Positions 367 through 45,125 of a stretch of DNA of 64,000 bases are shown in pieces; position 1 is the stretch's first letter, and every line of letters begins with the position of its first letter. Position numbers and translations under genes: made by a program. Below the pieces are notes generated by a model, which was not told the origin of the DNA, did no database searches, and worked only from the letters and a program-made list of their open reading frames with translations. Source of the DNA: a virus (lineage: Duplodnaviria; Heunggongvirae; Uroviricota; Caudoviricetes); IMG/VR virus record IMGVR_UViG_2671180747_000017. One strand, 5' to 3'.

Positions 367-376
367 GGAGTGGTGA

Positions 377-1642: not shown

Positions 1643-1675
1643 TTCACGATATTCCATTAATACCATTTCCTGATG

Positions 1676-1700
1676 CCCGGCCATTGTGCCGGGTTTTTTT
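1676..1700 (+). terminator. Rho-independent terminator-like hairpin (CCCGGC-loop-GCCGGG then T7)
   Basis: Read directly: 6-bp GC stem, 6-nt loop, 7 consecutive T; lies between the 421-aa gene stop and the giant gene start. Confidence 0.6.
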
Positions 1701-1711
1701 ATGGAGTCTGT

Positions 1712-10093: not shown

Positions 10094-10101
10094 CAGAAAT
10101 G

Positions 10102-10123
10102 GCCCCGTACGGAAGTGCGGGGC
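10102..10123. terminator. Stable hairpin after giant gene at convergent gene junction, no U-tract
   Basis: GCCCCGTAC-GGAA-GTGCGGGGC 9-bp stem read directly, 9 nt after stop codon. Confidence 0.3.
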
Positions 10124-10216
10124 TGATTAAGGAATAAACACACATTAACCTGTAATAACCGGAGCTATTAACATATAGTCAGAAAGAGTATTTCATGTGA
10201 GACAGAGAGCCGATTT

Positions 10217-10408
10217 ATGTTTAATGAAGAAAAAGTTGCGCAAATGGCAGCGTATTTGCTGAAAAAGCATGGCGGATCTATGCGTTTCATTAAGCTGATG
10301 AAGCTGATGTATCTCTCTGACCGCAAAGCAATGGAGTCTTTAACCGGGAAGGGGAGAGGTTTGAATGCTCCCCCACAATTCCCCGGCATCAAATCTCCAT
10401 GCAGGTGA
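10217..10408 (+). pseudogene. Possible N-terminal remnant of a Panacea (DUF4065)-like gene
   Basis: 63-aa ORF with KLMKLMYLSDRKAMESLTGK pattern recalled from Panacea-domain N-termini; ends abruptly; sits alone between convergent operons. Confidence 0.25.
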
Positions 10409-10494
10409 ACTATTTTACCCCCAGCGGCAAATCGCAAAAACAATCAGTGCGATCGAAATGGCAGCCACTACAATTGCAAATGCTTCAGGCTAGG

Positions 10495-11421
10495 TCATTG
10501 GCTTACCTCCTTCGGCGGTTCTGGTAGCGGCATCCAGTGGGTTACTTCTTTGAGATGCAGGTCTTCGCCATCACCGTCATCCCAAGTGGGATTGCCATCA
10601 TTAAACCAGTCGCCATATACGCCGACCTGAGTGTTGGGGATGCTTGGTGGGTAGTTGTTTTTAAAGTCAGCTGCTAACACATAGTATTGTCGCTCTCCCA
10701 TTTCTGGCATTCGATCACTACAGCTTATCCAACCATCCGGAGTTACCGGAACTGGCGGAACGGCTGTTTGCTCTCGAACGTCATTAGTCGCTATCGGTTC
10801 TGCTGCCAACTGACTGGCATATTTGTTAATGGTAACGATAAGCTCTTGCTCAGCCTCATCCAGACAATCACCGATACCTCGCCTGTCACCGTCAAAATCA
10901 TCGAAATCGGCACGAATCTTGGCAACCTTCTGGATTGCGGACAACACCTCACTAGGAATTACCGGATAGTTGGTTGACGTTTCCGCGATTTCCCGAAAAT
11001 TATTGGTTGACGAATTCTTGTTTTCCCGAAAGTTTCCGGACTGAAGCATGGCGGCGCGGCAGGCATTCCAGCCTCTTACCTCTGCAATAGCGGCAACCGC
11101 ATCAACCGCGTACATGCTAAGAGGATTAGGCATTGGTTTTTCTTCCGGTACTACTGGTGCTGGAGGGGCGGCGTAAATGCCCTCTATCACTAAATGTTTG
11201 CGCTCAAAATCATCTGGCTCTCGATGATATACGTAACTCCAATCACCAAGGTTATCATTGCGCCTGCAACGGAAACCTATCGGCTCGGCTTCCAGCGCTG
11301 CCAGAGCAATTCGTGCCAGTTCTTCCGCTTCTTCTGCTGGCAGTACAACGTTGCTACCAGGTCCGTATGTTTCGCGCCACTGCTTGATTGTCAGTAGTCG
11401 CTCTTTGGTAATAGTGATCAT
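10495..11421 (-). CDS. DUF551-like prophage protein
   Basis: ORF track; C-terminal YYVLA...GVYGDWFNDG...THWMPLPEPP resembles the DUF551 module common in lambdoid early-left regions. Confidence 0.65.
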   Translation of the reverse strand: MITITKERLLTIKQWRETYGPGSNVVLPAEEAEELARIALAALEAEPIGFRCRRNDNLGDWSYVYHREPDDFERKHLVIEGIYAAPPAPVVPEEKPMPNPLSMYAVDAVAAIAEVRGWNACRAAMLQSGNFRENKNSSTNNFREIAETSTNYPVIPSEVLSAIQKVAKIRADFDDFDGDRRGIGDCLDEAEQELIVTINKYASQLAAEPIATNDVREQTAVPPVPVTPDGWISCSDRMPEMGERQYYVLAADFKNNYPPSIPNTQVGVYGDWFNDGNPTWDDGDGEDLHLKEVTHWMPLPEPPKEVSQ

Positions 11422-11933
11422 GCCGCGTTTCCTTCTTTCTTATTAACAATTACACCGTCATATATTTCATTAAGGTGCCCTCTCAACTCCATGCGCCTTA
11501 ATGCAGATAACATGTAATCGCATTCAACCTGCTTATTCCCAATAAAAGGTTTATCTTCAGGGTTACCCCAACAGCAATTCCCCTTGGGCCATCCATGTAC
11601 TTTCCGTACTCTTCCGTTAACAACGTGAAGTAATCCCCAGCCAGGTGGTAAATCCTCAATTGAAATAATTCCCGGCTCACTAATAAAGAATCGCCAGTCG
11701 CCCATTCCAAGAGACGGATTTTTACGAAAACGCTTTTTTCTATCTGCCAACAAGTCAGCACGAGAACATTTCGCCTCTATCAGGCATGATGCTGAATTTC
11801 TGAATCCCATAGCATCTGGCTGTTCTCCGGTACTGGTTACAGCTATAAAGCGGTCATGAAAACAAACCTTGAACCCGTTGCGCTTAAGGAACTTGTACGC
11901 AATCTGACAGAGTTCGCGGTGTGTTAACGCCAT
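11418..11933 (-). CDS. Hypothetical prophage protein, possible PD-(D/E)xK-like nuclease motif
   Basis: ATG at 11933 with AAGGAG RBS overlapping the upstream gene's stop; motif CLIEAKCSRADL. Confidence 0.55.
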   Translation of the reverse strand: MALTHRELCQIAYKFLKRNGFKVCFHDRFIAVTSTGEQPDAMGFRNSASCLIEAKCSRADLLADRKKRFRKNPSLGMGDWRFFISEPGIISIEDLPPGWGLLHVVNGRVRKVHGWPKGNCCWGNPEDKPFIGNKQVECDYMLSALRRMELRGHLNEIYDGVIVNKKEGNAA

Positions 11934-11934
11934 A

Positions 11935-12885
11935 TCACTCTCCTTTGATGCGAATGCCAGCAAGCCAGTTTCTTATGCCGATATATTCAGCGTTCCGGAA
12001 ACCGCTTTTTACATATATAAATGGCAAGCGAAGATTGTGACCATTGACTGCCAGGTAGTCTTTACAACCCTGTTCGGTGAAACAGCAGGTAACGAATTCA
12101 TCAATATCTTTCACAGCAACGCGCCGCCATTTTTCTGGTGGCTCTCGAAAGTTTTCATGAAGTAGCTCGAGACGACGACTATGGCGTTTATTGGCTTCAT
12201 TGCCATCTTCGTCAACCCAGACAATCCGGTCATGGTCATAATCAGCATCAACAACGATTTCGCGCTTTTGATACACACAAAACATGGGATCTGACGTTAT
12301 TCGATTGTCCTGTGTTCGAATATTTTCACCGATGATGCCAAACGAATCTGGTGCAGATTTTGTCTGCATCTCTTCGATACGTTCAGCCATCGCAGCACAC
12401 TCTTCAAAGTTGCTTAATGCTTTTCGCTCCCATTCGGCGCATTGTTTTTCCAGTTCTGCTATGCGCTTACTTCCATCCGCGATTACTCCCTCGTAATATT
12501 CACGCTGCTCGTTGAGTTTTGATTTTGCTGTTTCAAGCTCAACGCGCAGCTTCCCTACCGTAAGCGCAATATCCTCGTTCTCCTGGTCGCGGCGTTTGAT
12601 GTATTGCTGGTTTCTTTCCCGTTCATCCAGCAGTGCCAGCACGGTAGCCGGATTGGCTGCGGCGATGAATTCAGCATTGGCCTGCTGTTCCATTTGGAAA
12701 TCTTCATCGAAACCGCTTTCAGGATGTGCTCCTTCAATTCTGCAAATGGGAATATATCCAGCAGCCTCGCGATGAATTAGTGCATCATCACCATCAAATC
12801 GGTTCTCTCCATATTCGAGCGACCACTCACCACGCGTTGCTTTTTCTGCCTTTTCACGCAGTACCTGATAGTTAATCTCGCTCAT
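11935..12885 (-). CDS. Ead/Ea22-like prophage protein
   Basis: Contains ANAEFIAAANPATVLALLDE, which I recognise from Ea22-like proteins; central coiled-coil; start refined to ATG 12885. Confidence 0.7.
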   Translation of the reverse strand: MSEINYQVLREKAEKATRGEWSLEYGENRFDGDDALIHREAAGYIPICRIEGAHPESGFDEDFQMEQQANAEFIAAANPATVLALLDERERNQQYIKRRDQENEDIALTVGKLRVELETAKSKLNEQREYYEGVIADGSKRIAELEKQCAEWERKALSNFEECAAMAERIEEMQTKSAPDSFGIIGENIRTQDNRITSDPMFCVYQKREIVVDADYDHDRIVWVDEDGNEANKRHSRRLELLHENFREPPEKWRRVAVKDIDEFVTCCFTEQGCKDYLAVNGHNLRLPFIYVKSGFRNAEYIGIRNWLAGIRIKGE

Positions 12886-13156
12886 TTTTCTCTTCGCTCC
12901 GGTATACAAGAATTACAACGTCACCTCTGCTAATTACGCGAGCTGGATCTCCTGGCTCCATGCTGTCAATCCCGAAGGCTTCGGAAAACGCATTCATTGC
13001 CTTCTGGCGTTGATCCTGCTTACGGCATTTATTCCATTTTTTCAGTAACAACAGCGATAGCCACCGCCCGGCGCAGAACATAATGTAAAAATAACCAAGA
13101 AGCGCCAGACCTGTGTTGAGGGCCGTATCGATCGTTATAGTGGTGTCTATGCTCAC
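12872..13156 (-). CDS. Small hydrophobic (membrane) prophage protein
   Basis: ORF track; hydrophobic segment GLALLGYFYIMFCAGRWLSLLLL; translationally coupled to neighbours. Confidence 0.5.
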   Translation of the reverse strand: MSIDTTITIDTALNTGLALLGYFYIMFCAGRWLSLLLLKKWNKCRKQDQRQKAMNAFSEAFGIDSMEPGDPARVISRGDVVILVYRSEEKNERD

Positions 13157-13374
13157 TTCACACCTCTCTGTTTGTTGATAAGTTCAATATCCTGCTGGCA
13201 ACTGGCGCAAGTTCGGCATCCGCGAACAGCCTGGCGTCGCCGCTCATCTATCGGATCGCCACACTCGCAACAATGAGTAGCAGATGGGGCATTACTTTCG
13301 GATTTGTATTTTTGCAGGGAGAGATTGCGCTGCAATTCTTCGATTTCAGCGGCATTGTCGATGATATCTGCCAT
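13153..13374 (-). CDS. TraR/DksA-family C4 zinc-finger protein
   Basis: CCECGDPIDERRRQAVRGCRTCASCQ four-Cys motif; 73 aa, typical size and position for phage TraR-like proteins. Confidence 0.8.
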   Translation of the reverse strand: MADIIDNAAEIEELQRNLSLQKYKSESNAPSATHCCECGDPIDERRRQAVRGCRTCASCQQDIELINKQRGVK

Positions 13375-13421
13375 TTTCCTTTCCTTCAGGCATGAAAAAA
13401 GGAGCCGAAGCTCCTTTGGTA

Positions 13422-14045
13422 TCAGAATTCAAATTGTCTTGCTCTTAGTTGCGCTAGCATACTTCTGGCCCTATGCACCATATAGTTGGCGGGATCAAGT
13501 TTTGCTGCTTCGCGGAGCAATGTGTCGCGAGTCCGGTTGGTTATATGACGAGTCTCGTAGGCCAGATCAAACAGTTTCCCGTAGTAATCAGAATTCAGTT
13601 CTCTCATGACGGGGTATAGCTGCTTACTGAGTTGTTGTGCTTTTTCCATCCAGAGTTGAACGTAGCAGAGCAGGATGATGTCTTCTGCTGTGAATTGCTG
13701 CTCAGTTTGTACTGGCTGAATGTTGCGAAGTTTCTTTTCGCACTCGATGAAGTATCGGCGTATCTGGCGGCCTTTTTCGTTACGTTCAACCATCGCAAGC
13801 TCTTTGGCTGTGTCGAGGGTGAGGTGGTAATCCTTGCGGCGGCGGCCTGGAGTTTTCGCCAAATTTGGCGAAAATAGAATGTAGTCTAAATTTTCTACGA
13901 ATCCATACTCGTTTAGCTTGGCCCGTATCCAGTTAGAAAAATCTTTACCTACCTCTAAAAATCCATGCAAATCACGCGCGTTCACCAGAAGCGTAGGTTC
14001 ATTTGAGATTGTACCTTCAAACACAGGGATGAGTTGAGTGGTCAT
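13422..14045 (-). CDS. Phage antirepressor, AntA-type N-terminal domain
   Basis: Start refined to ATG 14045 (MTTQLIPVF...) with GGAGG RBS; N-terminal region matches AntA/AntB-type antirepressors. Confidence 0.75.
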   Translation of the reverse strand: MTTQLIPVFEGTISNEPTLLVNARDLHGFLEVGKDFSNWIRAKLNEYGFVENLDYILFSPNLAKTPGRRRKDYHLTLDTAKELAMVERNEKGRQIRRYFIECEKKLRNIQPVQTEQQFTAEDIILLCYVQLWMEKAQQLSKQLYPVMRELNSDYYGKLFDLAYETRHITNRTRDTLLREAAKLDPANYMVHRARSMLAQLRARQFEF

Positions 14046-14294
14046 GATGACCTCCTTTGGCTTTTTTCGAGAAATGCCACCACAAAATGTGGTGCCGGGA
14101 GGCTCGAAACGGCCCAAAAGATACCGCGGACTTATTCCCCTTGCGGGTGTTGTATTCGTCGCCCTCCCGACATTGATCGGGGATGTGACCGCACACTGTG
14201 CTATCACTGAATAACAGGCATAAAAAATCCAACACTGACGGGGTTGGTTTAATCCGCTTTTGGGAGGTTTTCGAGGCCTCGGCGCGGAGTATAG

Positions 14295-14582
14295 TCAGTA
14301 TTGGACGCAGTCGTCAACCATCGCCGTTTCTTTGGCTGTGTCGAGGGTGAGGTGGTAATCCTTGCGGTTGTGACCGCCTCTACCAGATGTTTGCTTTCCC
14401 AAATTGGAAAGCAAAATATAGTCTTGATTTTCAATGAATTCGTATTCTGAAATGCGATTTGTAATCCATGCCGCAAACACCTTTTTCACGCCTAAAAAAG
14501 CATGCAGATCGCGGGCATTGCAGAGTAGGGCTGTTTCGTTGTCGATAGTGCCGTTGAATACGGGGATGAGTTGATTAGCCAT
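14295..14582 (-). pseudogene. Truncated paralog of the antirepressor (N-terminal domain only)
   Basis: MANQLIPVFNGTIDNETALL... closely parallels the 13422-14045 protein then ends at ...MVDDCVQY; flanking DNA is a partial duplicate of 13790-14290. Confidence 0.5.
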
Positions 14583-14909
14583 AATTATGACTCCTGACGT
14601 TTTAGTATTGACTGCCACCTTAGTGGGGTGGCGGGCTTCAACTACCGCGTCAGACGGCGGAGCGTATTTCCCGAAAGGGTATTGTATTAGGCTCTCTCGA
14701 CCCGCCATTGATATGGCGATACCTGTAAACAGGCATAAAAAAGCCGCAAAGCTATCGGGTGCGGTTGACCGCTGACGTTGTAGTGCAGTCAGTATGCGAT
14801 AGCTCTGGCAGATTTGTCAAATCGTGCAGTAACATCCTTTTCTTCCTTGCCATTTCTCAATGATGACAAAGGGTGGATTCGGATTGGTATTGGGACAAAA
14901 GTGAGACAC

Positions 14910-14942
14910 ACAAAGCTTTGCATCGGCTTACAAAGCTTTGCA
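14910..14942. repeat. Two direct copies of ACAAAGCTTTGCAT, each containing the palindrome AAAGCTTT, 19 bp apart
   Basis: Read directly near the prophage A / ynfG junction; operator-like or att-proximal binding sites. Confidence 0.4.
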
Positions 14943-14987
14943 TGTTTTTCAATGTTGGGACGTGTGAGCGCAGAAATGACGGGCTAT

Positions 14988-15101
14988 CTAATTGATTTTA
15001 AACGATACGTAACCAACTTTAAAATCTTTGCACGCCAGTTCGCAGGTTTTACAGCCAGTACAGCGGCTGGAATCGATAAAAAATCCATATTGTGTGGTCA
15101 T
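14988..15101 (-). pseudogene. ynfG: ynfG 5' remnant: first 28 codons (MTTQYGFFIDSSRCTGCKTCELACKDFK) fused to 9 phage-derived codons
   Basis: N-terminus matches DmsB/YnfG Fe-S subunit start; sequence diverges after KDFK at about 15018; AAGGAG RBS before ATG 15101. Confidence 0.7.
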
Positions 15102-17595: not shown

Positions 17596-18622
17596 TTATA
17601 TTTTTTCGATCTCGACCAGATTAGTGTGCTGCGGGTTTCCCTTCGCCAGTGGTGAAGGGCGCAGAGTGGTTAGCGTATTCACACAGCCGCCATGGTCGAT
17701 TTTATCGCCAGACATATTGGCCTCGTGCCAGGCTCCCTGGCCCATAGCGCTAACTCCAGGGAGAATACGTGGTGTTACTTTGGCTGGTAGCCGAACTTCG
17801 CCACGATGGTTAAACACCCGCACCATATCGCCGTTGGCAATCCCACGTTTCTGCGCATCTATAGGGTTGATCCACACCTCCTGACGGCAGGCAGCCTTCA
17901 GGAGATCAATATTGCCGTAGGTCGAGTGAGTACGGGATTTGTAATGGAAACCAAACAGTTGCAGTGGGAAGGTTCTACGTTCAGGGGAGTCCCAGCCTTC
18001 AAAGGTAGAGGCATAAACTGGCAGTGGGCTTATCACTTCATCTTTTTCCAGTTCCCAGGTACGGGCAATTTCCGCCAGCTTGCTGGAATAAATTTCAATC
18101 TTACCGGAAGGTGTTTTAAGTGGATTTGCCTCGGGGTCGTCACGAAATGCTTTGTAGGCGACAAAATGACCATTGGGATCTTTACGCTTATAGATACCCA
18201 TTTTTTTCAGTTCGTCGTAAGACGGTAACGCCGGATCTTTGGCAAGCATTTTGGCGTACAGATGTTGTAACCATTGTTCCTGCGTGCGACCTTCAGTGAA
18301 CTTTTGATAGACGTCAGGTCCAAGACGTTTCGCGACTTCACTCAGGATCCAGTAAATCGGTTTGCGTTCGAATTTTTCGCTGGTGACAGGCTGGAGGAAA
18401 ATGAGATATCCCATGTTACCGGCGTAGTCGTTAGGAATAATATCTTCCTGCTCAACGGTCATCAGGTCTGGCAGCAGAATGTCGGCATATTTTGCCGATG
18501 AGGTCATAAAGTTTTCGATGACCACAATCATTTCGCATTTCGATTCGTCCTGCAGAATTTCATGCGTTTTGTTGATGTCAGAATGCTGATTAACGAGGGT
18601 ATTTCCCGCGTAGTTCCAGATG
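17596..18622 (-). pseudogene. ynfE: ynfE C-terminal fragment (distal part of the disrupted gene)
   Basis: Paralogous to ynfF C-terminal half; the ynfE-derived reading frame begins at the junction (...SIWNYAGNTL) and the track ORF N-terminus is island-derived. Confidence 0.85.
18612..18622. repeat. attL core direct repeat AGTTCCAGATG
   Basis: Identical 11-mer at both ynfE breakpoints. Confidence 0.8.
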
Positions 18623-18687
18623 GACTCCATTGTCAGACGGATGGATGGACTTGAAGTAGTTGACTCAATGCTACTTAAGGTCCTGAT

Positions 18688-20271
18688 ATGACTGACATTA
18701 ACCATGATAATACTGTATATCCATCCAGTTCTTTCTCTGGGTCTCCCTATCTGTATCAGCAAGTCTGCACCTCAAGTCCTGACACAAGGCTGACACAAAT
18801 CAATCTACTCAGCGTAGCTAAGCCTCAGTTAGTCCGTAGAGCCAATGGTCGATATACTATCCGCTTCAGACTCAAGGGACAGACCATCCCGTTTCTTTCA
18901 GTATCGACCCGAAGCACAGACAGGAGAGTAGCCACAATGCGTCAGAGAGAGCTTGCAGCCACAGCTAAGTCCTTCATGTTGGATAGGCCTGATGTCTCGC
19001 TACAGGAGCTTACGGACCACCTCCGGTCTATGGCTGAGCAGTTCCTGACAGACGCCAGTGATGACTACTGGAATGGACTTGAGGTCGCTACTCTGGTGGA
19101 CGAGAAGTCCAACCTGAAGGAGCTAGCCGCTACGCAAGCCTTGAGTCTGGACCAGCAGAAGGGCATAAGGTTAGCGCTTGAAGTCCTGACCGCAGCACAG
19201 CAGAGGGTAGACACTGGTGATGCCTCTGGTCTGATTAAGCTGATTGATGATAATAACCATACTGATTACTCAACTATAGGCGACTCTACGTCAATTCTGA
19301 AGAATGAGCAGGGGGATAGACCAGCAGTTTTCACACAGGAGCGTCAGCCATCTGTGGTTTTTTCAAGCCTAGTGTCCTCGCTGCTGGCTGAGAAGGTCCA
19401 GACCCTGAAGTCCTCCAGCTACAAGGACCTGTCGTCCTCACTGAATACCGTCTCTCGGTTCTTACCTGAAGACATGGACCTGATGTCCCGCTCTGAGTGG
19501 CTGGCTGTCAGGGACTCCATGCTGGCTGCTGAGGTGAGACCATCGACAATCAACAAGCTGCTGACTAAGGCGAAGATGTGTCTTGATTATGGCCTGATGA
19601 ATGGGCAACTTGAGGGCCGCAACCCTATTGAACGGATGAAGCTGACCAAGGATATCGACTCCAAGCGCAGAGCGTTCACAGACGAGGAGCTGGAGAGACT
19701 TCTGGTCCGTGTTGAGTCTGAGTATCAGTTCACACGACACACGGCTCACACGACCTCTGAGGCCCGTAGATGGGCGTCTCTGGTGTCTGTGGTCACTGGC
19801 GCGAGGTCTGCTGAAGTCTGCCACCTGACTAAACGTGACATTGTCACCTTAGACAACGGTTTAACCTGCATCGACATCAATGAAGATGGGGACGGTAAGT
19901 CTGTGAAGAACAAACATTCAGTCCGACTTGTACCGCTGACCGATGGGGCCTGTGGGTTCGACCTGAAGTCCTTCCTTGAATGGGTAGACACGCAGCCTGA
20001 CGACGGCGGTCCTCTCTTCGGGATGACTCCGAGCGCCTACTCTAGCTGGTTTAACTCTAGGGTCCTGACTGAGGCACTGGGAGACGCTGAGAACGTTTCT
20101 CTCCATAGTCTGAGGCATTGGCTGGCGACCCGAATGAAAGAGCGTGGAGTCAATCTGGTGGACGCTCAGGGCATCTTAGGCCATAGCAGTCAGTCAATTA
20201 CGTATGACCTGTACGGGAAAGGACACGCTGTTGGTAGGCTGGCTGAGGTGCTGAAGACAGCTTTACTTTAA
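18688..20271 (+). CDS. int: Tyrosine recombinase / integrase of the island
   Basis: C-terminal HSLRHWLATR and LGHSSQSITYDLYGKGH (H-x-x-R and catalytic Tyr); N-terminal GRYTIRFRLKG arm-binding-like segment; true start uncertain because arm-type repeats lie at 18780-18798. Confidence 0.85.
   Translation: MTDINHDNTVYPSSSFSGSPYLYQQVCTSSPDTRLTQINLLSVAKPQLVRRANGRYTIRFRLKGQTIPFLSVSTRSTDRRVATMRQRELAATAKSFMLDRPDVSLQELTDHLRSMAEQFLTDASDDYWNGLEVATLVDEKSNLKELAATQALSLDQQKGIRLALEVLTAAQQRVDTGDASGLIKLIDDNNHTDYSTIGDSTSILKNEQGDRPAVFTQERQPSVVFSSLVSSLLAEKVQTLKSSSYKDLSSSLNTVSRFLPEDMDLMSRSEWLAVRDSMLAAEVRPSTINKLLTKAKMCLDYGLMNGQLEGRNPIERMKLTKDIDSKRRAFTDEELERLLVRVESEYQFTRHTAHTTSEARRWASLVSVVTGARSAEVCHLTKRDIVTLDNGLTCIDINEDGDGKSVKNKHSVRLVPLTDGACGFDLKSFLEWVDTQPDDGGPLFGMTPSAYSSWFNSRVLTEALGDAENVSLHSLRHWLATRMKERGVNLVDAQGILGHSSQSITYDLYGKGHAVGRLAEVLKTALL
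18780..18798. repeat. Two direct TGACACAA arm-type repeats, 11-bp spacing, left end of island
   Basis: TGACACAAGGCTGACACAA read directly; same motif triplicated at the right end. Confidence 0.7.
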
Positions 20272-20348
20272 GTAGGAAGACCCAAGGTGGAGACCATATA
20301 CGGCTTGATGGTTGAGACCTTGGGTCACTGAAGTCTGACTGAAGTTAG

Positions 20349-20376
20349 GGAGGGTGATAATAATCATAATCCCTCC
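20349..20376 (+). terminator. Hairpin downstream of integrase (GGAGGG, 16-nt loop, CCCTCC), no clear U-tract
   Basis: Read directly about 80 bp after the int stop. Confidence 0.25.
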
Positions 20377-20483
20377 TGACTATAGGCCCACTGGTTCGCC
20401 TTCGGCTGTCAGACTCTAAGTCTGTATGTGGTCTTATTTAAACTGGTTCCCTAACTCCAGTACTCCAAATTCCTATGGTCTCC

Positions 20484-20690
20484 TCTTGACATTCCTGTTT
20501 AACTGTGAGTCGCCTCTGGTCTCTCTTTATATATACTTCCTTAATTCCTGAGGCGTCTTTAGTCCTTGACATCCAGTCCAGCCTGTGAGTCACATCCGGT
20601 CCTCCCTCTTTATATATACTTCCTTAATTCCTAGGGTCGCCTTAATCCTTGACATCCAGTCCAGCCTGTGAGTCACATCCTGTCGCGCTA
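20484..20690. repeat. Three tandem direct repeats, period about 80-83 bp, each with TTGACAT...CTGTGAGTC; the first two also carry CTCTTTATATATACTTCCTTAATTCCT
   Basis: TTGACA at 20486, 20566, 20649; CTGTGAGTC at 20503, 20583, 20666; 27-mer at 20523 and 20606. Confidence 0.75.
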
Positions 20691-20713
20691 CTGTATGCAT
20701 CACCAGTGATGGA

Positions 20714-20736
20714 CTTGATTATCACTATAGGGGAAC
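20714..20736 (+). promoter_or_regulatory. T7-group phage RNA polymerase promoter-like site, copy 1 (predicted +1 G at 20730)
   Basis: TCACTATAGGG matches T7 consensus positions -8 to +3 exactly; upstream specificity region (ATTA) differs from T7/T3/K11/SP6; 35 bp upstream of an ORF with AGGAG RBS. Confidence 0.6.
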
Positions 20737-20764
20737 CAACTAATTCAACTACAGGAGATACTCT

Positions 20765-21133
20765 ATGGCACGACCAATCGCAACTCACGACAACACGTTC
20801 ACCAAAGCCTACTTGCAGCAGCACTGCGGGGACCTGCTGTCATTCGATGGTCAGGGCGACCTGAGTGGTTGGCTGGATGATGTCCTTACTGGTGCTGGTC
20901 GCCTGAACGAATCAATGGCAAGCAATACCAAGCCTGTCAGCCCATACTTGATTCTGACCCAACTACTAACGCACGACACATTAACTGTAAGCGCTGTACA
21001 GGAGTCCCTGAGCCGTAAGCGTGTTGCCTTGGGTGAACCTATGGTTTCAACTCGCTACGCTCGCTACGTCTATGCTACCGTCGTCAGCGCCAGTAAATCC
21101 GTCCAGTACCACGCCAGTAAAGCTGGTTCATGA
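20765..21133 (+). CDS. 122-aa protein, first gene downstream of phage-type promoter 1, unknown function
   Basis: ORF track; ACAGGAGATACTCT-ATG gives an AGGAG RBS at good spacing. Confidence 0.65.
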   Translation: MARPIATHDNTFTKAYLQQHCGDLLSFDGQGDLSGWLDDVLTGAGRLNESMASNTKPVSPYLILTQLLTHDTLTVSAVQESLSRKRVALGEPMVSTRYARYVYATVVSASKSVQYHASKAGS

Positions 21134-21142
21134 TTACGGACC

Positions 21143-21165
21143 CTAAACTATCACTATAGGGAGAC
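21143..21165 (+). promoter_or_regulatory. T7-group phage RNA polymerase promoter-like site, copy 2 (predicted +1 G at 21159)
   Basis: TCACTATAGGGAGA matches T7 consensus positions -8 to +6 (14/14); shares TATCACTATAGGG with copy 1; same strand. Confidence 0.65.
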
Positions 21166-21422
21166 CAGCCTCCGCCTCTGAGTCTGATGCGTCAGAACAT
21201 GCGAGCATCTGGTCAACCGACATTAAGTATCTCTCCTAAGTAATCAAGGCATGTGACCGCCTCTGTCAGACCTCGTGTATCGACCTCCAGCTCGTTAGCG
21301 TTCTCGTGTCTTCATTATGATTTGGGTCTATCACCGCTCACCATCTGGAAGTCCTTACAGCTCGTCCTGACATGCGGTCTCACCTTTATATGGCTGGAAG
21401 AGACCTCCTCTGTCAGACGCTA

Positions 21423-21470
21423 TCTAACCAACCCAGAAAACGGGTTTGTTAAAAAGATTAACATGGGTCT
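21423..21470. repeat. Direct repeat copy 1, about 47 bp (TCTAACCAACCCAGAAAACGGGTTTGTTAAAAAGATTAACATGGGTCT)
   Basis: Near-identical second copy at 21619-21665; contains short hairpin AACCC-AGAAAAC-GGGTT. Confidence 0.7.
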
Positions 21471-21490
21471 CCACCTTCATGAGGACCGCT

Positions 21491-21504
21491 CCGGAAATTT
21501 CCGG
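21491..21504. repeat. 14-bp perfect palindrome CCGGAAATTTCCGG between the two 47-bp repeats
   Basis: Read directly. Confidence 0.7.
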
Positions 21505-21618
21505 ACCGTGAACGGGTGGCTCTATCACAGGTCGCGAAAATGGAAACCTGCTTAACGTCCCCAAAACTGAGCAGTCACCATTCTTAACGGGTCCAAATTT
21601 GGGCGCGTTGGCGAGAAG

Positions 21619-21665
21619 TCTAACCAACCCAGAAAACGGGTTTGTTAAAAAAGTTAACATGGTCT
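21619..21665. repeat. Direct repeat copy 2, about 47 bp
   Basis: About 45 of 48 positions identical to copy 1; 196 bp spacing. Confidence 0.7.
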
Positions 21666-21793
21666 TCACACGACCTCATTACCTCAAGTCTTTCTGTATG
21701 TCTCCTGTTGCCTGTGAGTCTCCCTATCGTTGGGGGCTTGAGTAGGCTTTCAGGGTGTGACTTCAGGAGGCATAACAAAAGGAGTACAACGAT

Positions 21794-22552
21794 ATGTCAA
21801 CTCAACCCTTAATGAAGCATGAAGTAGTTCTTCCTGTCATCGTTGACGGCTATCACTGGGCCTGTAATCAGGACCGTATGTGGAACCTGAACGAGCTACA
21901 TAAAGAGCTTGAGCTTCCATCTGCTAAGGAGCCGGGTCAGTGGCGTTCTAGCGTCAGGACGCTTCTTGACCAAGATGCAAATCTGCATGTTGCTCATGGT
22001 GGTTCGACTCCGGGGACATGGGCTACTGAAGAGGCGGCTATTGCCTATGCGATGTGGGTCTCACCTGATTTCTACCTTAAGGTCATCCGTGCTTTCATCG
22101 CTTTACGTAACGACAAAGTGTCGGAAGCTAAGGCGCTGGCGCAGGACTCCAAGGAACTTAAGGGTCTCAAGCCTATAGCCCGTAACTGGCTGGAAAAGCT
22201 GGATAACCCGAAGCAGGGCCACACCCTGACAGAGTGTCTTAAGAATCTCGACTTCAGGTTAGGTACAAAGCTGGTATCAGCCAAGGCTCTTAATGCCGTA
22301 TTGAAGTCAGGGCGTATAGCTAATCCCTTCTATAGTCGCAAGCTGGACGGTCGAGGACAGCCTGTATTTGACATCTCGTCAGGTGGCTGGATGACCAGCT
22401 TCAATCCTAAGGGTCTGGAGAACGGCTATTACCGTCTTCAGGATAACCACTATAACGGTCAGGAGGGGCTTAAGGTCCTCACCAAGGGTTACGAGTGGCT
22501 TAAGTCCAACAAGGTCGAGCTGGTTCGTCTGTGCGCTAAGGGAGGACTCTAA
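21794..22552 (+). CDS. KilA-N domain protein (DNA-binding), 252 aa
   Basis: AAGGAG RBS; N-terminal ...LHVAHGGSTPGTWATEEAAIAYAMWVSPDFYLKV resembles KilA-N/APSES-type domain. Confidence 0.7.
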   Translation: MSTQPLMKHEVVLPVIVDGYHWACNQDRMWNLNELHKELELPSAKEPGQWRSSVRTLLDQDANLHVAHGGSTPGTWATEEAAIAYAMWVSPDFYLKVIRAFIALRNDKVSEAKALAQDSKELKGLKPIARNWLEKLDNPKQGHTLTECLKNLDFRLGTKLVSAKALNAVLKSGRIANPFYSRKLDGRGQPVFDISSGGWMTSFNPKGLENGYYRLQDNHYNGQEGLKVLTKGYEWLKSNKVELVRLCAKGGL

Positions 22553-22553
22553 G

Positions 22554-22721
22554 ATGATTGACCCGCGCACACCTGAGGGCCGCATGACTCTCCGTTACCG
22601 TGGCTACCGGACTGAAGTCCTCCTCAGAGAGCTTGGTCTAGACCCGGAAGATGAGACCCGCCAGCACCAATCCCGAGACGAGCTGATAGCGCAACTGGTC
22701 GCTATGAAACTGTCTGCCTAA
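22554..22721 (+). CDS. Small 55-aa protein, not in ORF track
   Basis: ATG immediately after the upstream stop (TAAGATG coupling); MIDPRTPEGRMTLRYRGYRTEVLLRELGLDPEDE...; read by eye. Confidence 0.4.
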   Translation: MIDPRTPEGRMTLRYRGYRTEVLLRELGLDPEDETRQHQSRDELIAQLVAMKLSA

Positions 22722-22817
22722 TTTTAAAACCTTTTGAGATGACCGATGCGGGGAGACCCGTAGGCGCTACTGCGTCTGCGATACCGATAGTCTCAACTCT
22801 CAAGAGGAGAATTACCT

Positions 22818-23309
22818 ATGATGTTCAACAACAACAACTGGAAGCTGTCAGTCACCGACATCAACCTTTATGAAAACACTGTGAGTCTGGACGGTCAGTC
22901 CTATCCGTTGTCGCTCGCTATCAAGACCCTGATTCCGGGCTACCTGTCAGGACTGCCGTCTACCAGCCGTGAGTCTATGGAGTTACTGGAAGCTCTGGCT
23001 GAAGCTGGTGTAGCTATTGGCAACTTCTTCAGTAATGACCTGATGACCGCCTATGGTCGCCGCCAGCAGAACAAGCGAGCTGAGGCTGAGCGTATCGCTA
23101 AAGAGCAGCGCATTCAGGCCGAGCGCATGCGTGAAGAGAACATGACTGATGCAGAGTGGCAGAAAGAGCTACAGCGCCGCGAACAGGTCAAAGCTGAACG
23201 CCGGACCTATGGTGAGAACCTCCGCAGTGCTACCCATTCCGCTGGTCGCTCCCGTGCCGCTATTGTCGCTGACCTTGAGTCAGGCGGTAACTGGCTGGAC
23301 AGCTTATAA
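22818..23309 (+). CDS. 163-aa protein with basic coiled-coil C-terminal half, unknown function
   Basis: ORF track; GAGGAG RBS; Arg/Glu/Gln-rich heptad-like segment AEAERIAKEQRIQAERMREE. Confidence 0.6.
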   Translation: MMFNNNNWKLSVTDINLYENTVSLDGQSYPLSLAIKTLIPGYLSGLPSTSRESMELLEALAEAGVAIGNFFSNDLMTAYGRRQQNKRAEAERIAKEQRIQAERMREENMTDAEWQKELQRREQVKAERRTYGENLRSATHSAGRSRAAIVADLESGGNWLDSL

Positions 23310-23393
23310 GACACACAGTCCCTGACCCGATGTTAGGGACTCCTCAGTTTTGAGGACTCACAGTATTTAAACTAATTTAGGAGATTGATTATT

Positions 23394-24380
23394 ATGACGA
23401 TTAAAGACGCTTTCCAGTTTGGCATTGAGCCAGTACGCATCACCGATACCGACAACATTCAGGTCAATGAAGGTCTGCCGACTAACGCTGACCCGCAGGT
23501 CTACGCCCTCCAGTTAGCTAAGACGGTTAAGGCTATGCTGAACGGTGTACTTAAGGACGCTCAAGAGAACATCCCGTTCCCTGTAGAAGTCCTGCCGACC
23601 CGTAACAGCTTACCGACCCCAATCATTGCCCACACTCTGACTGACCGCTCTGTGGTCGTTCCTGTCCGTGGTGGCAAGCGACCTGAAGTCGTGACCGTTC
23701 CGTCTGGACAAGAAATCGTGGTCGAACCAATCGAGCAGGCTATTCTCATCTCTGAGCAGACCAAGCTCTGGGACGCCAAGTCATCCACCGGATTCACTCA
23801 GGGCACACTTCAGCAGGACGCTATGAACATCTGTGAGAATGTGGTCCGTACCATCAACGCTCGCATGGTCGACGTTCTGGAATCCTCTAAGCTGCTGAAG
23901 ACCGTAGAGCTTCCTGTCCTGACTGGTAGCCTGACCGCTAAGGCAGACGCTATCATGGACGCTCTGTATGAGAACACAGAGTCTTCTTTCGGTTCTGAGG
24001 TGTCTGACTACGGTATTATCGCTCATGAGAGCCAACTGAAAGCACTGTCCCGTCTGGCTGCTAAGCAAGGCTTCTCCGGTGAAGACGCTATCGTCGATAT
24101 GCTGGGAACAGACATCGCCTACTACAACGGTGAAGACAAGGGTGTATTCATGCTGGCTAAACGCTTCACGGCTCTGAGCTTCGGTTGCTTCCGTCACGAT
24201 GGCGAGAATATTACGGTCGTCCTTTCACGTGATGGCGACTCTCAGTCCCACGACTTGGAAATCCTCGGTAAAGTGTTCGTTGTCGCTGAAGCTGCTACGA
24301 CCATCAAGATGGGCACTGGCTCAGCTACTGCCGTCCTGCCTGTAGTCAAACGCCTGAAGTTCACCAAGACCGAAGCGTAA
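23394..24380 (+). CDS. 328-aa protein, unknown function (largest island cargo gene)
   Basis: ATG 23394 with TAGGAG RBS (track start 23385 is TTG); no motif I can assign. Confidence 0.65.
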   Translation: MTIKDAFQFGIEPVRITDTDNIQVNEGLPTNADPQVYALQLAKTVKAMLNGVLKDAQENIPFPVEVLPTRNSLPTPIIAHTLTDRSVVVPVRGGKRPEVVTVPSGQEIVVEPIEQAILISEQTKLWDAKSSTGFTQGTLQQDAMNICENVVRTINARMVDVLESSKLLKTVELPVLTGSLTAKADAIMDALYENTESSFGSEVSDYGIIAHESQLKALSRLAAKQGFSGEDAIVDMLGTDIAYYNGEDKGVFMLAKRFTALSFGCFRHDGENITVVLSRDGDSQSHDLEILGKVFVVAEAATTIKMGTGSATAVLPVVKRLKFTKTEA

Positions 24381-24385
24381 GACCA

Positions 24386-24625
24386 ATGGGTAAGAGCATT
24401 AGTAAAGGCTTCAGGTCCATCGCCAAGGGCCTGACAGGTGGTGGTGGGACTCAAGGTGGGGCTTCGGTCCCGCCTCCTGTAGCTCCTCCTGTAGCTCCTC
24501 CAGATGACGCTCAGCAAGCTGTAGTCGATACCCAAGGTCAGGAGACCGAGGGAGGTAAGACCATGAGCAGAGGTAAGTCTGGACTGAATATCAGCAGGAC
24601 TTCAGGTGGTGGCCTGTCACTGTGA
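24386..24625 (+). CDS. 79-aa Gly/Pro-rich basic protein
   Basis: ORF track; GGGGTQGGASVPPPVAPPVAPP low-complexity; follows 328-aa gene by 5 nt. Confidence 0.45.
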   Translation: MGKSISKGFRSIAKGLTGGGGTQGGASVPPPVAPPVAPPDDAQQAVVDTQGQETEGGKTMSRGKSGLNISRTSGGGLSL

Positions 24626-24863
24626 TTAAGACATCTATACAGCCTGTGGAGGGTGGACGATATCAAGCAACAATCTGGATGACACGCAGAGTCTATAAGC
24701 GGCTATGCTGGTCACTGGCTGAAGCTGAACAGTGGGTGAGACGTAAAGTGCCTACCGTTCAATCGTTCCAATCATCATGATAACTATGGTCTGGACCAAT
24801 GGTCTGGACCTTTGTTTTGTACTAGTTATCTAGTGCAGTAGTACAATAGACGAAGGAGGCTTT

Positions 24864-25019
24864 ATGTCTATGACTTCCGCAGACCTAAGGTCCCTCCTGA
24901 CTCTGGTCTATAAACTCGTGTTCCTCTCTGTGGGTCTCTATATGGTCCTCTCCGGTCGACTCGGTGTGAATGTATTCGACACTCTGTCTAAGGCTGTGGG
25001 TGGGCTTCTGGGGGCTTAG
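24864..25019 (+). CDS. 51-aa hydrophobic membrane peptide
   Basis: Strongest RBS in the island (GAAGGAGG, 6 nt before ATG); one predicted TM helix LLTLVYKLVFLSVGLYMVLSG; read by eye, not in ORF track. Confidence 0.5.
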   Translation: MSMTSADLRSLLTLVYKLVFLSVGLYMVLSGRLGVNVFDTLSKAVGGLLGA

Positions 25020-25169
25020 GTTTGGACTCACAGTGGGACCGATGGTTTCTGACAGAAAAATGTGAATGACCATCTAATACATTAAGCCAGCAGACTTCCC
25101 CCATAGCCCGCCTCAAGTCCAGACCGAGGCCACCGGGGGGCTGACCAGCCGTCTAGACATCCCGTCTAA

Positions 25170-25200
25170 TGACACAAGGCTGACACAAAGCCTGACACAA
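25170..25200. repeat. Three direct TGACACAA arm-type repeats (11-12 bp spacing), right end of island
   Basis: TGACACAAGGCTGACACAAAGCCTGACACAA read directly. Confidence 0.7.
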
Positions 25201-25257
25201 AGTCCTTGACTCAATGCAGGACCTCAGGCCTACTAAGGGTCCGCTTCAAGTCCTTGA

Positions 25258-25268
25258 AGTTCCAGATG
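25258..25268. repeat. attR core direct repeat AGTTCCAGATG
   Basis: Identical to 18612-18622. Confidence 0.8.
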
Positions 25269-44994: not shown

Positions 44995-45103
44995 ATGATT
45001 TTTGCTGAAGATGGCGACATGATGTTTGCATTTTTCAAAAAACATGGATAAGATTTTCTCAACGATGGGCTTTGTGTATCCGACGTTTAGAAAAAAGTAG
45101 AAA

Positions 45104-45125
45104 ACCCGCTGATAAGCGGGTTTTT
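45104..45125 (+). terminator. tR'-like rho-independent terminator downstream of Q
   Basis: ACCCGCT-GATA-AGCGGGT stem then TTTTT, about 110 bp after the Q stop. Confidence 0.7.

Follow-up and report, generated by a model that had tools for sequence, protein, structure and literature searches.

The genes studied here lie in an island of 6,646 bp (18623-25268 of the window, i.e. the whole 64,000-nucleotide stretch of DNA that was analyzed), which is an exact insertion in ynfE, as seen when it is compared, base by base, with NZ_AP045176.1, where the isogenic site is empty. In this comparator, E. coli JNEC-KY179, the flanks are identical to those of the window and ynfE is intact. The island is bounded by an 11-bp direct repeat, AGTTCCAGATG, which is the att core; its attL copy (18612-18622; direct repeat D16) was placed by the empty-site comparison, and the attR core (25258-25268) forms the right island end. 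The word island in the original prediction is therefore borne out. A tyrosine integrase of 527 residues is encoded at 18688-20271 on the + strand (Pfam Phage_integrase, E = 1.8e-13; phrog_1, E = 3e-42), and the first ~20 codons of its gene overlap a box resembling a concatemer junction (see below). In addition to the integrase, the gene set comprises a KilA-N protein, a small helical protein, a capsid protein with a predicted HK97 fold and a probable gp7.3 homologue. RNA polymerase, replication protein, primase, portal, terminase and tail genes were not found among the nine island ORFs in Pfam and PHROG scans, and no island protein gave a significant tblastn match to the genome of the T7-like phage Pisces. 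The element is integrative, has its own integrase and att sites and does not carry complete virion or replication gene sets, as is general for satellites.

The four ORFs predicted in the central block are all present on the + strand. They encode the KilA-N domain protein of 252 residues (21794-22552), a 163-residue protein (22818-23309), a 328-residue protein and a 79-residue protein (24386-24625). The 328-residue ORF was listed from a TTG at 23385, and its homologues begin at the ATG at 23394 (23394-24380). Good Shine-Dalgarno sequences, as had been claimed for the whole block, precede the first three ORFs (AAAAGGAG, AGAGGAGAA and TTTAGGAGA, respectively), but that of the 79-residue ORF, which starts 5 nt past the stop codon of the capsid gene, is weak. 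The labels given to the proteins hold as well: the Pfam KilA-N model matches with E = 1.3e-9, residues 81-135 of the 163-residue protein, described as a coiled coil, are 71% E/K/R/Q/A, and the 79-residue protein, described as Gly/Pro-rich, is 30% Gly+Pro. The block also holds two ORFs missing from the first list, namely: a 55-residue ORF (22554-22721, +), which lies beside the 163-residue gene in all relatives and has a dN/dS of 0.07, and a 52-residue ORF (24622-24780, +), which overlaps the stop of the gp7.3-like gene by 4 nt and occurs in close relatives only. From the KilA-N gene through the 52-residue ORF, the intergenic gaps are 1, 96, 84, 5 and -4 nt. A stable hairpin (23317-23341, +; -21.4 kcal/mol, z = -3.5) occupies the gap between the 163-residue gene and the capsid gene, and a terminator-like hairpin followed by a U-rich run (24788-24820, +; -16.6 kcal/mol, z = -3.6) ends the late gene block. 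Beyond it, a hydrophobic ORF of 51 residues with a strong ribosome-binding site, GAAGGAGG, is found at 24864-25019 (+); in position it corresponds to the final small gene in T7-type genomes, to which it has no detectable similarity.

Full-length homologues of the block ORFs are present in E. coli, Shigella, Citrobacter, Enterobacter, Leclercia and Buttiauxella, as well as in Salmonella, Yersinia, Photorhabdus, Kluyvera and Rouxiella. Pairwise dN/dS is 0.31 for the KilA-N protein, 0.17 for the 163-residue protein, 0.12 for the 328-residue protein and 0.41 for the 79-residue protein. Because of these homologues across genera and these ratios, the ORFs are genes rather than chance ORFs: all four are real and conserved, and are under purifying selection (dN/dS 0.1-0.4).

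The KilA-N protein combines an N-terminal DNA-binding domain with a conserved C-terminal domain. Its residues 26-104 match KilA-N (PF04383) at 38.3 bits, above the Pfam gathering score of 23.8; the protein also matches phrog_129, and its N-terminus is 35% identical to P1 KilA. Full-length homologues are found in the distant islands L043 (32%) and L051 (29%). This protein would likely serve to recognize DNA, be it for regulation, excision, replication or packaging.

The 163-residue and 328-residue proteins gave no Pfam, PHROG or PDB sequence match, so that the description of both as unassignable stands for sequence-only methods; it does not stand after deep alignment and fold search. By this approach the 328-residue protein has a confident HK97 fold, with an N-arm, an E-loop hairpin, a P-domain made of a long spine helix and β-sheet, and an A-domain, and on the strength of this model it is an HK97-fold major capsid protein. 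The capsid models of Pfam and PHROG gave no match to any of the 41 family members, and there is no detectable sequence relation to T7-type gp10 (hhalign probability 0.1%). A homologue of the 163-residue gene accompanies the capsid gene in every case and invariably lies immediately 5′ of it; the two are the most conserved genes across the family and are under strong purifying selection. The 163-residue protein has a central charged helical region and 122 homologue clusters, and its homologues fill the same slot in islands L043, L044, L048 and L050, the L050 counterpart giving a weak match to PF22318/DUF6971. It shows no similarity to T7-type gp9 and has no homologue among 50,697 phage records. 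Its position, composition and co-inheritance indicate that it is probably a scaffolding or assembly protein.

The 79-residue protein matches phrog_1320 over its full length (E = 1.8e-11) and the PDB entry 9jyz, ‘Protein 7.3’ (E = 0.0037). Its match to Pfam PF11653 (VirionAssem_T7; E = 0.006, 17.6 bits) falls under the curated cut-off of 25 bits, and tblastn with the low-complexity filter on found no match in the phage collection. T7 gp7.3 is a tail-channel protein located at the junction of adaptor and nozzle. Its C-terminal loop anchors to the nozzle protein gp12, and its basic residues contact the DNA end (PMC11784390). The C-terminus of the island protein, GKSGLNISRTSGGGLSL, aligns with residues 83-99 of T7 gp7.3, GKKSLSVARSSGGGINI, such that the loop is present and one of the two lysines is kept. 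Judged from these alignments, the 79-residue protein is probably a homologue of T7 gp7.3 that has kept the nozzle-anchoring loop.

Two promoters of the phage single-subunit RNA polymerase type are found on the + strand of the island. The first, phi-1 (ACTTGATTATCACTATAGGGGAA, 20713-20735; repeat family D19), has a predicted +1 at 20730, 35 nt 5′ of an ORF of 122 residues (20765-21133, +; phrog_23123), which is the first gene 3′ of it. The second, phi-2 (CCTAAACTATCACTATAGGGAGA, 21142-21164), has a predicted +1 at 21159 and matches, at all of 25 nt, the promoter that lies 5′ of the Pisces capsid gene (island, GGACCCTAAACTATCACTATAGGGAGACCAG; Pisces, CTGGACTAAACTATCACTATAGGGAGACCAA); its 18-mer occurs in 22 IMG/VR contigs, 20 of which are 39-41 kb in length, and outside the island is almost confined to such contigs, identified as Kayfunavirus. 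Only two CACTATAGG sites exist in the 64-kb window; they are 430 bp apart, on the + strand and intergenic, each 5′ of genes, and we calculate a chance expectation of ~0.002 for the exact 14-mer matches. In the relatives, promoters are found at the same place, often as tandem pairs, with the specificity boxes swapped (ACCCT, ACTAT, GCACT, CCACA, CCTAC and CCCCG). A further phage-like feature is an imperfect hairpin element starting with GGAGGGTGATAATAATCATAATCCCTCC (20349-20384, +), which matches a right-end noncoding element of Kayfunavirus. The identity spans 28-32 nt (28 of 28 nt with Pisces 39030-39057), in Kayfunavirus-type phages the counterpart is ~450 nt away from the right end of the genome, and the element is found in 144 phage records of ~39-40.7 kb at 95-100% identity. 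Between the integrase gene and phi-1, three tandem ~82-bp repeats (20503-20689, +; families D1 and D5), each with an AT-rich box, TTTATATATAC, and TTGACA, are present in close relatives only; they have no sigma-70 promoter score and are possibly an origin, iterons or regulator sites.

The two ends of the island together mimic a T7-type region of direct terminal repeat (DTR) and concatemer junction (CJ). The left half (18623-18755, +) is equivalent to the right boundary of the T7 terminal repeat plus a class II RNA-polymerase pause box, ending in CTGGGTCTCCCT followed by ATCTGTA (18737-18755). It aligns with Pisces 172-223, across the annotated DTR end, and with T7 146-166; it is kept in all relatives, and its database matches are exclusively T7-like phages of ~37-42 kb. 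ATCTGT(T/A) at the T7 concatemer junction is a class II polymerase pause and termination signal according to the cited study. The box of the island, ATCTGTA (18749-18755), differs from the strictly conserved T7 ATCTGTT, which is a point against the mimicry, but it is the Kayfunavirus form. The right half (25056-25268, +) runs to the attR core and is likewise kept in relatives; it aligns with the concatemer junctions of T7, Pisces and P1723, and its database matches are genome ends of ~40-kb T7-like phages. Within it, AAAAATGTGAATGACCA followed by TCTAATACA (25056-25081) corresponds to the surroundings of the left-end cut in T7, and the mature left end is therefore predicted at ~25073; a CCCCCATAGCCC box follows at 25099-25110. 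Since attP splits the mimic in two, it is complete only after excision. Both the Pisces terminal repeat and the junctions of T7 and P1723 are colinear with the circularized junction, which holds both cut-site contexts as well as the pause box. Furthermore, TGACACAAGGCTGACACAAA (18780-18799, +) has an exact second copy at 25170-25189 (repeat family D7); in the circle, attP has one copy on either side. Similar GACACAAGG/GACACAAAG arrays exist in islands L007 and L043. The TGACACAAGGCTGACACAAA copies are candidates for integrase arm sites or for analogues of the repeat arrays beside T7-type terminal repeats.

Taken together, the data point to the island as a 6,646-bp integrative satellite of T7-like virulent phages that has its own capsid gene, with the four ORFs as its conserved core, and we consider this explanation likely. 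Going by promoter sequence, the best match for the helper of this copy is Kayfunavirus (K1F-like). The original prediction had viewed the block as cargo, which does not fit, as the element family has the KilA-N, 163-residue and capsid genes as its conserved core. It had also given equal weight to a capsid-remodelling or packaging-redirection module and to a defence operon. The former guess was essentially right, being backed by the HK97-fold protein, the gp7.3 homologue, the T7-type promoters and the concatemer-junction mimic.

A phage-triggered defence element, acting by abortive infection or interference through toxic or decoy proteins and with no particle transfer, would also have its expression driven by the polymerase of the invader, and satellites commonly interfere with their helpers. 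PADLOC models of known defence proteins match nothing in the island, the one hit being a weak match to the candidate family PDC-S22 (E = 6e-7) that is confined to the KilA-N domain. Pure defence needs neither cut-site contexts, a pause box and a right-end element nor a gp7.3 homologue with a nozzle-anchoring loop. Defence as the function of the island is thus improbable; interference with the helper is possible as a by-product.

If the island is a satellite as proposed, its late genes would be silent without phage because they are placed behind phage-polymerase promoters. Upon infection by a matching T7-like phage, the phage RNA polymerase would fire phi-1 and phi-2, and the 122-residue ORF, the KilA-N gene, the 55-residue ORF, and the 163-residue, capsid and gp7.3-like genes would be transcribed. 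The integrase would excise the island, and the ~320-bp terminal-repeat mimic would be made whole from its two halves by circularization. T7-type origins require no more than AT-rich DNA and a phage promoter, and the circle could be copied into concatemers by the helper replisome. Phage polymerase crossing the junction would pause at ATCTGTA, and the helper terminase would cut at the mimicked sites. The satellite capsid protein and the 163-residue scaffold may then assemble on the helper's portal and core into a small shell sized for one ~7-kb unit, to which the helper's adaptor, nozzle and fibres would be added, with the satellite's own gp7.3 in the channel. It should be noted that the integrase gene lies 5′ of both phage promoters, a point against the satellite model given T7-type host shut-off. 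Contigs of island size ending at att are present in isolate and metagenome assemblies; none of the island-sized contigs is a circular form, the predicted attP junction was not found in JGI metagenomes or IMG/VR, the capsid gene is found in IMG/VR in larger contigs only, and encapsidated island DNA was not found.

In a less favoured variant of the capsid step, six units (39.9 kb) would be packaged in helper-sized heads. This leads to a rival explanation, in which head-full concatemers fill unmodified helper capsids, as has been reported for PICMIs and marine VEIMEs, and the capsid-like protein serves another purpose, for example poisoning or capping helper procapsid assembly. Six units amount to 39,876 bp (40.2 kb with an extra repeat), the candidate helper genomes are 38-41 kb, small marine satellites are documented to package as concatemers, and the cis-elements are common to both explanations. 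Moreover, plasmids with a T7 origin and a concatemer junction were reportedly packaged as ~40-kb concatemers by Chung and Hinkle in 1990. However, conservation of the capsid gene together with its partner is expected of a structural shell and less of an interference factor, and the narrow island size of ~6.2-6.8 kb also suits a fixed small capsid; we regard packaging in unmodified helper capsids as unlikely. Since no sequence relation of the capsid protein to gp10 is detectable and its family has no tblastn match among the 50,697 phage records, an autonomous shell of the satellite seems likelier than co-assembly with the helper's capsid protein. To our knowledge, there is no characterized precedent for a capsid protein with no detectable sequence relation to the helper's gp10 assembling on a foreign portal, and the need for it to do so counts against the satellite model. 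If the model is true, this capsid family would add a new lineage of small shells to the HK97 fold, which would be of interest for work on capsid-size control and for the engineering of nanocontainers.

The satellite explanation gains from the island family. The same design is found in islands whose capsid proteins are just 25-41% identical, and distant relatives in several enterobacterial genera have it with other promoter specificities. Some copies carry IS insertions or frameshifts, as might be expected if the island were a decayed remnant of a temperate T7-like prophage, and T7-like phages with integrases do exist according to the LUZ100 paper. Such a remnant, or alternatively an encapsulin-type nanocompartment operon, would have no current phage-dependent cycle. 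Against both, the intact compact gene set is kept across genera at 25-41% protein identity with dN/dS far under 1, the capsid protein is not of the T7 type, there is no cargo enzyme or encapsulin-type operon, and the genes are surrounded by an integrase, att sites, phage promoters and a junction mimic; we consider either origin highly improbable. Returning to the satellite, there is a little under an even chance, in our estimate, that the island represents an unrecognized and widespread family of ~6-7-kb satellites that bring together helper-polymerase promoters, a junction mimic and a private set of HK97 capsid protein, scaffold and gp7.3. Its members would use a stolen portal, core and tail for a small head of their own, and their private gp7.3 would sit in the nozzle. 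Where tandem promoters differ in specificity, as in some members, the helper range would be wider; in this clade, with attP lying inside the mimic, excision would assemble it.

T7 and its relatives are textbook virulent phages with wide use in therapy cocktails and biotechnology, and we know of no satellite of T7-like phages. A full-text literature search found no published description of this island type or of any satellite of such phages. If the proposed explanation is true, a phage that shuts off its host and degrades it in minutes is still open to exploitation by satellites, through use of its signals for transcription, replication and packaging. The minimal kit for capsid-forming parasitism would then consist of an integrase, a single DNA-binding protein, a scaffold and a capsid protein. 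The family would also show, in nature, how promoter specificities are swapped during an arms race with the RNA polymerases of phages. T7-like phages used in therapy may meet interference from enterobacterial strains with such islands, or may mobilize the islands.

Among known satellites, PICIs are marked by AlpA, a primase/replicase and packaging-redirection genes, P4-like elements by the alpha primase, Sid, Psu, Delta and cos, and PLEs by the PLE gene set with a serine recombinase; all three classes were rejected, as no hallmark genes were found when all island ORFs were scanned against Pfam and PHROG. The Ccm protein of SaPIbov5 is kin to the capsid protein of its helper, with which it co-assembles to redirect capsid size, and P4 Sid and PLE TcaP are external scaffolds. 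Unlike Ccm, the island capsid protein has no detectable sequence relation to gp10. The head and packaging set of cf-PICIs includes a portal, a protease, head-tail connectors and terminase subunits; this class was also rejected, since the capsid protein is the only member of such a set found among the nine ORFs. According to the published account, cf-PICIs such as EcCI2 of E. coli have a full protein set for building and filling their small capsids, the helper supplying tails only. In contrast, the island measures 6.6 kb, and of such proteins it encodes just the capsid protein, the putative scaffold and the gp7.3-like protein; helper-polymerase promoters precede its genes, and virulent T7-like phages are the candidate helpers. 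The island resembles the PICMIs of Vibrionaceae and the marine VEIMEs in being a very small (~5-7 kb) integrative satellite of virulent phages with minimal genes, and concatemer packaging is a possible mode common to all three. PICMIs are reported to have no capsid-remodelling genes, to integrate beside fis and to use three core proteins for excision and replication, and VEIMEs have no major capsid gene according to the cited paper. The island differs from both in having a capsid gene, no replication gene and a location in ynfE, and in mimicking helper promoters and the concatemer junction; with ynfE integration, a capsid gene and no primase or AlpA found, its assignment as a PICMI was rejected.

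The island resembles Kayfunavirus (Studiervirinae; Pisces and the K1F group) in its promoters, right-end element, terminal-repeat boundaries and class II pause box, and gp7.3 is the one protein family that it appears to have in common with T7-like phages. It differs from them in its size (6.6 kb vs. ~40 kb), its integrase and att sites, a capsid protein unrelated in sequence, and the lack of RNA polymerase, replisome, portal, core, tail and terminase genes. With no single-subunit RNA polymerase and no T7-type structural and replication set, it was rejected as an Autographiviridae phage or prophage. An encapsulin nanocompartment, in which a shell gene and a cargo enzyme with a targeting peptide share a cellular operon, matches in fold but was rejected for want of a cargo enzyme and in view of the integrase, att sites, phage promoters and junction mimic around the genes. 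Finally, a phage promoter/origin and a concatemer junction are said, after Chung and Hinkle in 1990, to be the minimal cis-requirement for T7 replication and packaging. The island carries natural equivalents of both and in this respect resembles the artificial T7 transducing plasmids, from which it differs by its natural occurrence in a chromosome, its integrase, the splitting of its junction by attP and its own structural genes.

The four ORFs originally predicted as a module in the island lie where they had been placed, all on the + strand of the window: the genes for the KilA-N protein (21794-22552), the 163-aa protein (22818-23309), the 328-aa protein (23394-24380), whose ATG start is backed by homologue N-termini, and the 79-aa Gly/Pro-rich protein (24386-24625). 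Full-length homologues of all four are found in many Enterobacterales, and pairwise dN/dS values of 0.12-0.41 indicate that they are genes under selection. The tight packing with good RBSs that had been described holds for the spacing and for the RBSs of the first three genes, but the RBS of the 79-aa ORF is weak. A 55-aa ORF (22554-22721) and a 52-aa ORF (24622-24780) belong to the same gene block; a tyrosine integrase gene (18688-20271) and three small ORFs are also present on the island. The ORFs outside the block include ones of 122 and 51 aa; the 51-aa ORF was considered as a homologue of T7 gp19.5 or of the last gene of the Kayfunavirus (K1F-like) phage Pisces, and was rejected as no alignment was obtained. 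Pfam and PHROG scans of the island detected no polymerase, replication, portal, terminase or tail genes.

Neither the 328-aa nor the 163-aa protein has a sequence match in Pfam, PHROG or PDB, apart from a weak Pfam T7_gp14 score for the latter (E 0.013), which was dropped after direct comparison did not confirm it, and tblastn of both against a phage collection of 50,697 records was empty. The close family of the 328-aa protein is small (32 clusters); 66 relatives, with identities as low as ~20%, were recovered by an exhaustive profile search. A confident AlphaFold2 model required the remote homologues from this search: 11 close homologues gave a pLDDT of 39.7, while a 41-sequence alignment gave a pLDDT of 85.8 and a pTM of 0.81. 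Foldseek comparison of this model to BFVD returned phage capsid proteins throughout. Based on the modelled fold and these matches, the 328-aa protein is identified as a major capsid protein, of a lineage without a representative in those 50,697 records. A relationship of this capsid family to T7 gp10 was rejected, since the hhalign probability is 0.1% (no sequence relation).

The 163-aa protein has a conserved N-terminal domain and C-terminus and a variable, charged, helical middle, and its gene lies directly upstream of the capsid gene. This position makes it a probable scaffold protein; homology to the Kayfunavirus gp9 scaffold was rejected (probability 0.3%). The 79-aa protein matches the ‘host range and adsorption’ family of T7 gp7.3, phrog_1320, with E 1.8e-11, as well as the T7 gp7.3 chain of PDB 9jyz (E 0.0037), with its C-terminus GKSGLNISRTSGGGLSL aligned to GKKSLSVARSSGGGINI of T7 gp7.3. 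In a cryo-EM study, six copies of the gp7.3 C-terminal loop anchor to the nozzle protein gp12, and the loop is located at the adaptor-nozzle junction, where it touches the DNA end (PMC11784390). The KilA-N domain is confirmed by Pfam (E 1.3e-9). The original prediction had labelled this protein as cargo; its full-length homologues in distant islands argue instead that it is a core gene.

The window represents the ynfCDEF region of E. coli. Comparison with the empty-site reference E. coli JNEC-KY179, in which the flanks are identical and ynfE is intact, gives the exact limits of the island: a 6,646-bp insertion (18623-25268) flanked by the 11-bp repeat AGTTCCAGATG. The whole window contains no tRNA gene, and thus the island is not tRNA-targeted; an Rfam search of the island gave no match. 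To the left of ynfF, prophage-like DNA (1-15101) truncates ynfG, of which a 4Fe-4S protein pseudogene remains at 15018-15101. As annotated from the identical stretch of NZ_AP045176.1, this DNA carries an 8.4-kb gene (1712-10093) whose product has an LPD5 domain, an Ant-type antirepressor gene at 13422-14045 with a second, fragmentary one at 14313-14582, and genes of the ead/Ea22-like and TraR/DksA kinds. The region 45001-51000 has a low GC content (0.35-0.40 vs. ~0.49 for the whole window) and may be another horizontally acquired segment.

Islands of this family cluster at 6.2-6.8 kb in size, and assemblies of isolates and metagenomes contain many contigs of exactly this length, ending at att with short host flanks. 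None of them is circular; they stop at the att cores, and we read them as the product of branches in the assembly graph where a sample has the site in both occupied and empty form, not as evidence of free circles. For example, a 6,661-bp Logan contig (L007, SRR29836470) extends one island by exactly 30 nt per end, namely 14 nt of host flank and the 16-nt att core TAGTTCAGATTGAACT, which differs from the att site of the window island. As 30 nt equals k-1 for a 31-mer graph, the site is probably occupied in part of this sample and empty in the rest. Searches of JGI metagenomes and IMG/VR for the 24-mer of the attP junction gave no match, and no excised or encapsidated form of the island was found in the collections searched.

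Two promoters of the phage RNA polymerase type, phi-1 (TCACTATAGGGGAA, 20722) and phi-2 (TCACTATAGGGAGA, 21151), lie on the + strand in intergenic positions upstream of genes; the 64-kb window has no further site of this kind. phi-2 matches a Pisces promoter over 25 nt with 100% identity. All eight Pisces promoters read CT(A/T)AACTATCACTA(T/A)AGG, and promoters of the form CT(A/T)AACTATCACTATAGG are those of Kayfunavirus phages such as Pisces, vB_EcoP_F and IMM-002. Of the 22 IMG/VR contigs that contain the 18-mer ACTATCACTATAGGGAGA, 20 are Kayfunavirus contigs of 39-41 kb. A scan of the island for sigma-70 promoters and terminators gave no enrichment over shuffles.

Between the integrase gene and phi-1 lie three tandem ~82-bp repeats (20503-20689), each with an AT-rich box TTTATATATAC and TTGACA. 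These are found in close relatives only, have no match in Pisces and did not score in the sigma-70 promoter scan; an origin, iterons or binding sites of a regulator are possible functions. The 635-nt untranslated leader from phi-2 to the KilA-N gene contains a 44-nt unit twice (21423-21466 and 21619-21662; 95% identity between the copies), with the small hairpin AACCC-N7-GGGTT, the fold energies of which are unexceptional (z -0.8 and -1.4). A similar hairpin, AACCCGAAAACGGGTT, precedes the KilA-N-type gene of a distant island (L043).

The ends of the island, when joined as after excision, are colinear with the concatemer junction (CJ) of T7-like phages. At the left-end cut, island AAAAATGTGAATGACCA|TCTAATACA aligns to T7 AAAAATCTGAGTGACTA|TCTCACAGT, and a CCCCCATAGCCC box comes next; island CTGGGTCTCCCT|ATCTGTATCAG aligns to T7 CTGTGTCCCT|ATCTGTTACAG and to the annotated terminal-repeat end of Pisces. 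At the T7 junction, ATCTGTT serves T7 RNA polymerase as its natural class II signal for pausing/termination; the island box reads ATCTGTA, as in Kayfunavirus. When either end of the island was searched against whole databases, all matches fell at the genome ends of T7-like phages of ~37-42 kb. In addition, a 28-32-nt hairpin at 20349-20384, the right-end element, is identical to a noncoding element in 144 Kayfunavirus-type genomes, where it lies ~450 nt from the right genome end.

The terminal-repeat equivalent spans ~320 nt (25073-25268 plus 18623-18748) with the att core inside it, so that the packaging signal is complete only in the excised form. The predicted linear unit would start near TCTAATACATT (25073) and end near ...GGGTCTCCCT (18748); a start at CTCACAGTG (25027) was rejected because alignment with the junctions of T7 and P1723 gives ~25073. 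An exact 20-nt repeat, TGACACAAGGCTGACACAAA, is present at 18780-18799 and 25170-25189, with extra GACACAAAG copies at the right end. Its copies flank attP in the circular form; they may be arm sites for the integrase, or may correspond to the arrays of short repeats beside T7-type terminal repeats.

The integrase gene is not downstream of any phage promoter. Its ORF starts inside the terminal-repeat mimic (18688-18755), so that the first ~20 codons overlap the CJ/pause box, and the same overlap is present in two relatives (L001 and L007). According to a 2026 preprint, the T7 CJ is able to act as a sigma-70 promoter.

Close relatives of the island occur in Shigella, Citrobacter, Enterobacter, Leclercia and Buttiauxella, and have retained the capsid gene and the genes for the 55-aa and 163-aa proteins, with promoters and junction boxes in the same positions. 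Their promoters are often arranged in tandem pairs that differ in the specificity box (ACCCT, ACTAT and GCACT, the last in UMNK88). E. coli UMNK88 (NC_017641) is an island carrier whose late proteins are 100% identical. In four islands (L015, L016, L019 and L048), the tandem promoters are ~27-33 nt apart with different boxes, e.g. ACCCTCACTATAGGG then ACTATCACTATAGGG. This suggests that RNA polymerases from several phage groups could activate one and the same island. Distant islands, with capsid proteins 25-41% identical, share the layout of the window island (integrase, KilA-N-type or Bro-N protein, 163-aa homologue, then capsid gene) but differ from it in promoter class, e.g. TAAACCCCGACTATAGAGAG and TTAATTCCTACCACTATAGGGAGA, and in the junction boxes, each of which is their own. 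In two distant lineages the junction mimic is contiguous, not att-split.

A larger relative on a 12-kb Logan contig (L050, ERR5982074_4538) encodes a 527-aa capsid protein, longer than in the rest of the family, and has four identical-class promoters, a contiguous junction mimic and extra genes matching Pfam Phage_T7_GP04, ParE-like and HNH_3. Shigella flexneri SFBU1023 carries two different islands (L012 and L014), each with a different integrase and at its own chromosomal site. In other genomes, several copies are interrupted by IS66 or IS3, or have a frameshifted integrase.

Sequence comparison and structure prediction establish what the island encodes, the folds and families of its proteins, its exact insertion, and the helper-type cis-elements with their conservation across the family; the element is predicted to work like a phage satellite. 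In the proposed cycle, the RNA polymerase of a helper T7-like phage would turn the island on, and the integrase would excise it, completing the junction. The helper replisome would then produce concatemers for the helper terminase to cut at the mimicked sites. The capsid protein of the satellite would build the head on a scaffold of the 163-aa protein, the portal, core and tail coming from the helper and gp7.3 from the satellite itself.

Any heads made of the satellite capsid protein are predicted to be small (T=3 or T=4). Scaling from T7 (T=7, 40 kb) gives a T=3 isometric shell a capacity of ~11 kb, reduced to ~7 kb if it also has to house an internal core of the T7 type; one island unit plus repeat is 6,971 bp, near the latter estimate. 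Six units amount to 39.9 kb, which makes head-full concatemers of the island in helper capsids possible and keeps such packaging a live alternative to a head of satellite capsid protein. We know of no characterised precedent for a foreign capsid protein assembling on a T7-type portal.

Among known elements, the island lacks the defining gene set of each of the P4-like satellites, PICIs, cf-PICIs, PLEs and PICMIs, and a T7-like prophage, an encapsulin operon and a known defence system were each rejected. A literature search, incomplete in its coverage such that a prior description is possible, found none of a T7-type satellite, this capsid family or DUF6971; given that coverage, we rate the group as a new family within the known class of phage satellites, not as categorically new. 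To our knowledge, T7-like phages have no known satellite, and this, together with a combined promoter and packaging-signal mimicry that can be tested directly, makes the island of high interest. Its nearest analogues are cf-PICIs in the satellite-encoded capsid protein, PICMIs and VEIMEs in minimal size and virulent helpers, and artificial T7 transducing plasmids in cis-requirements.
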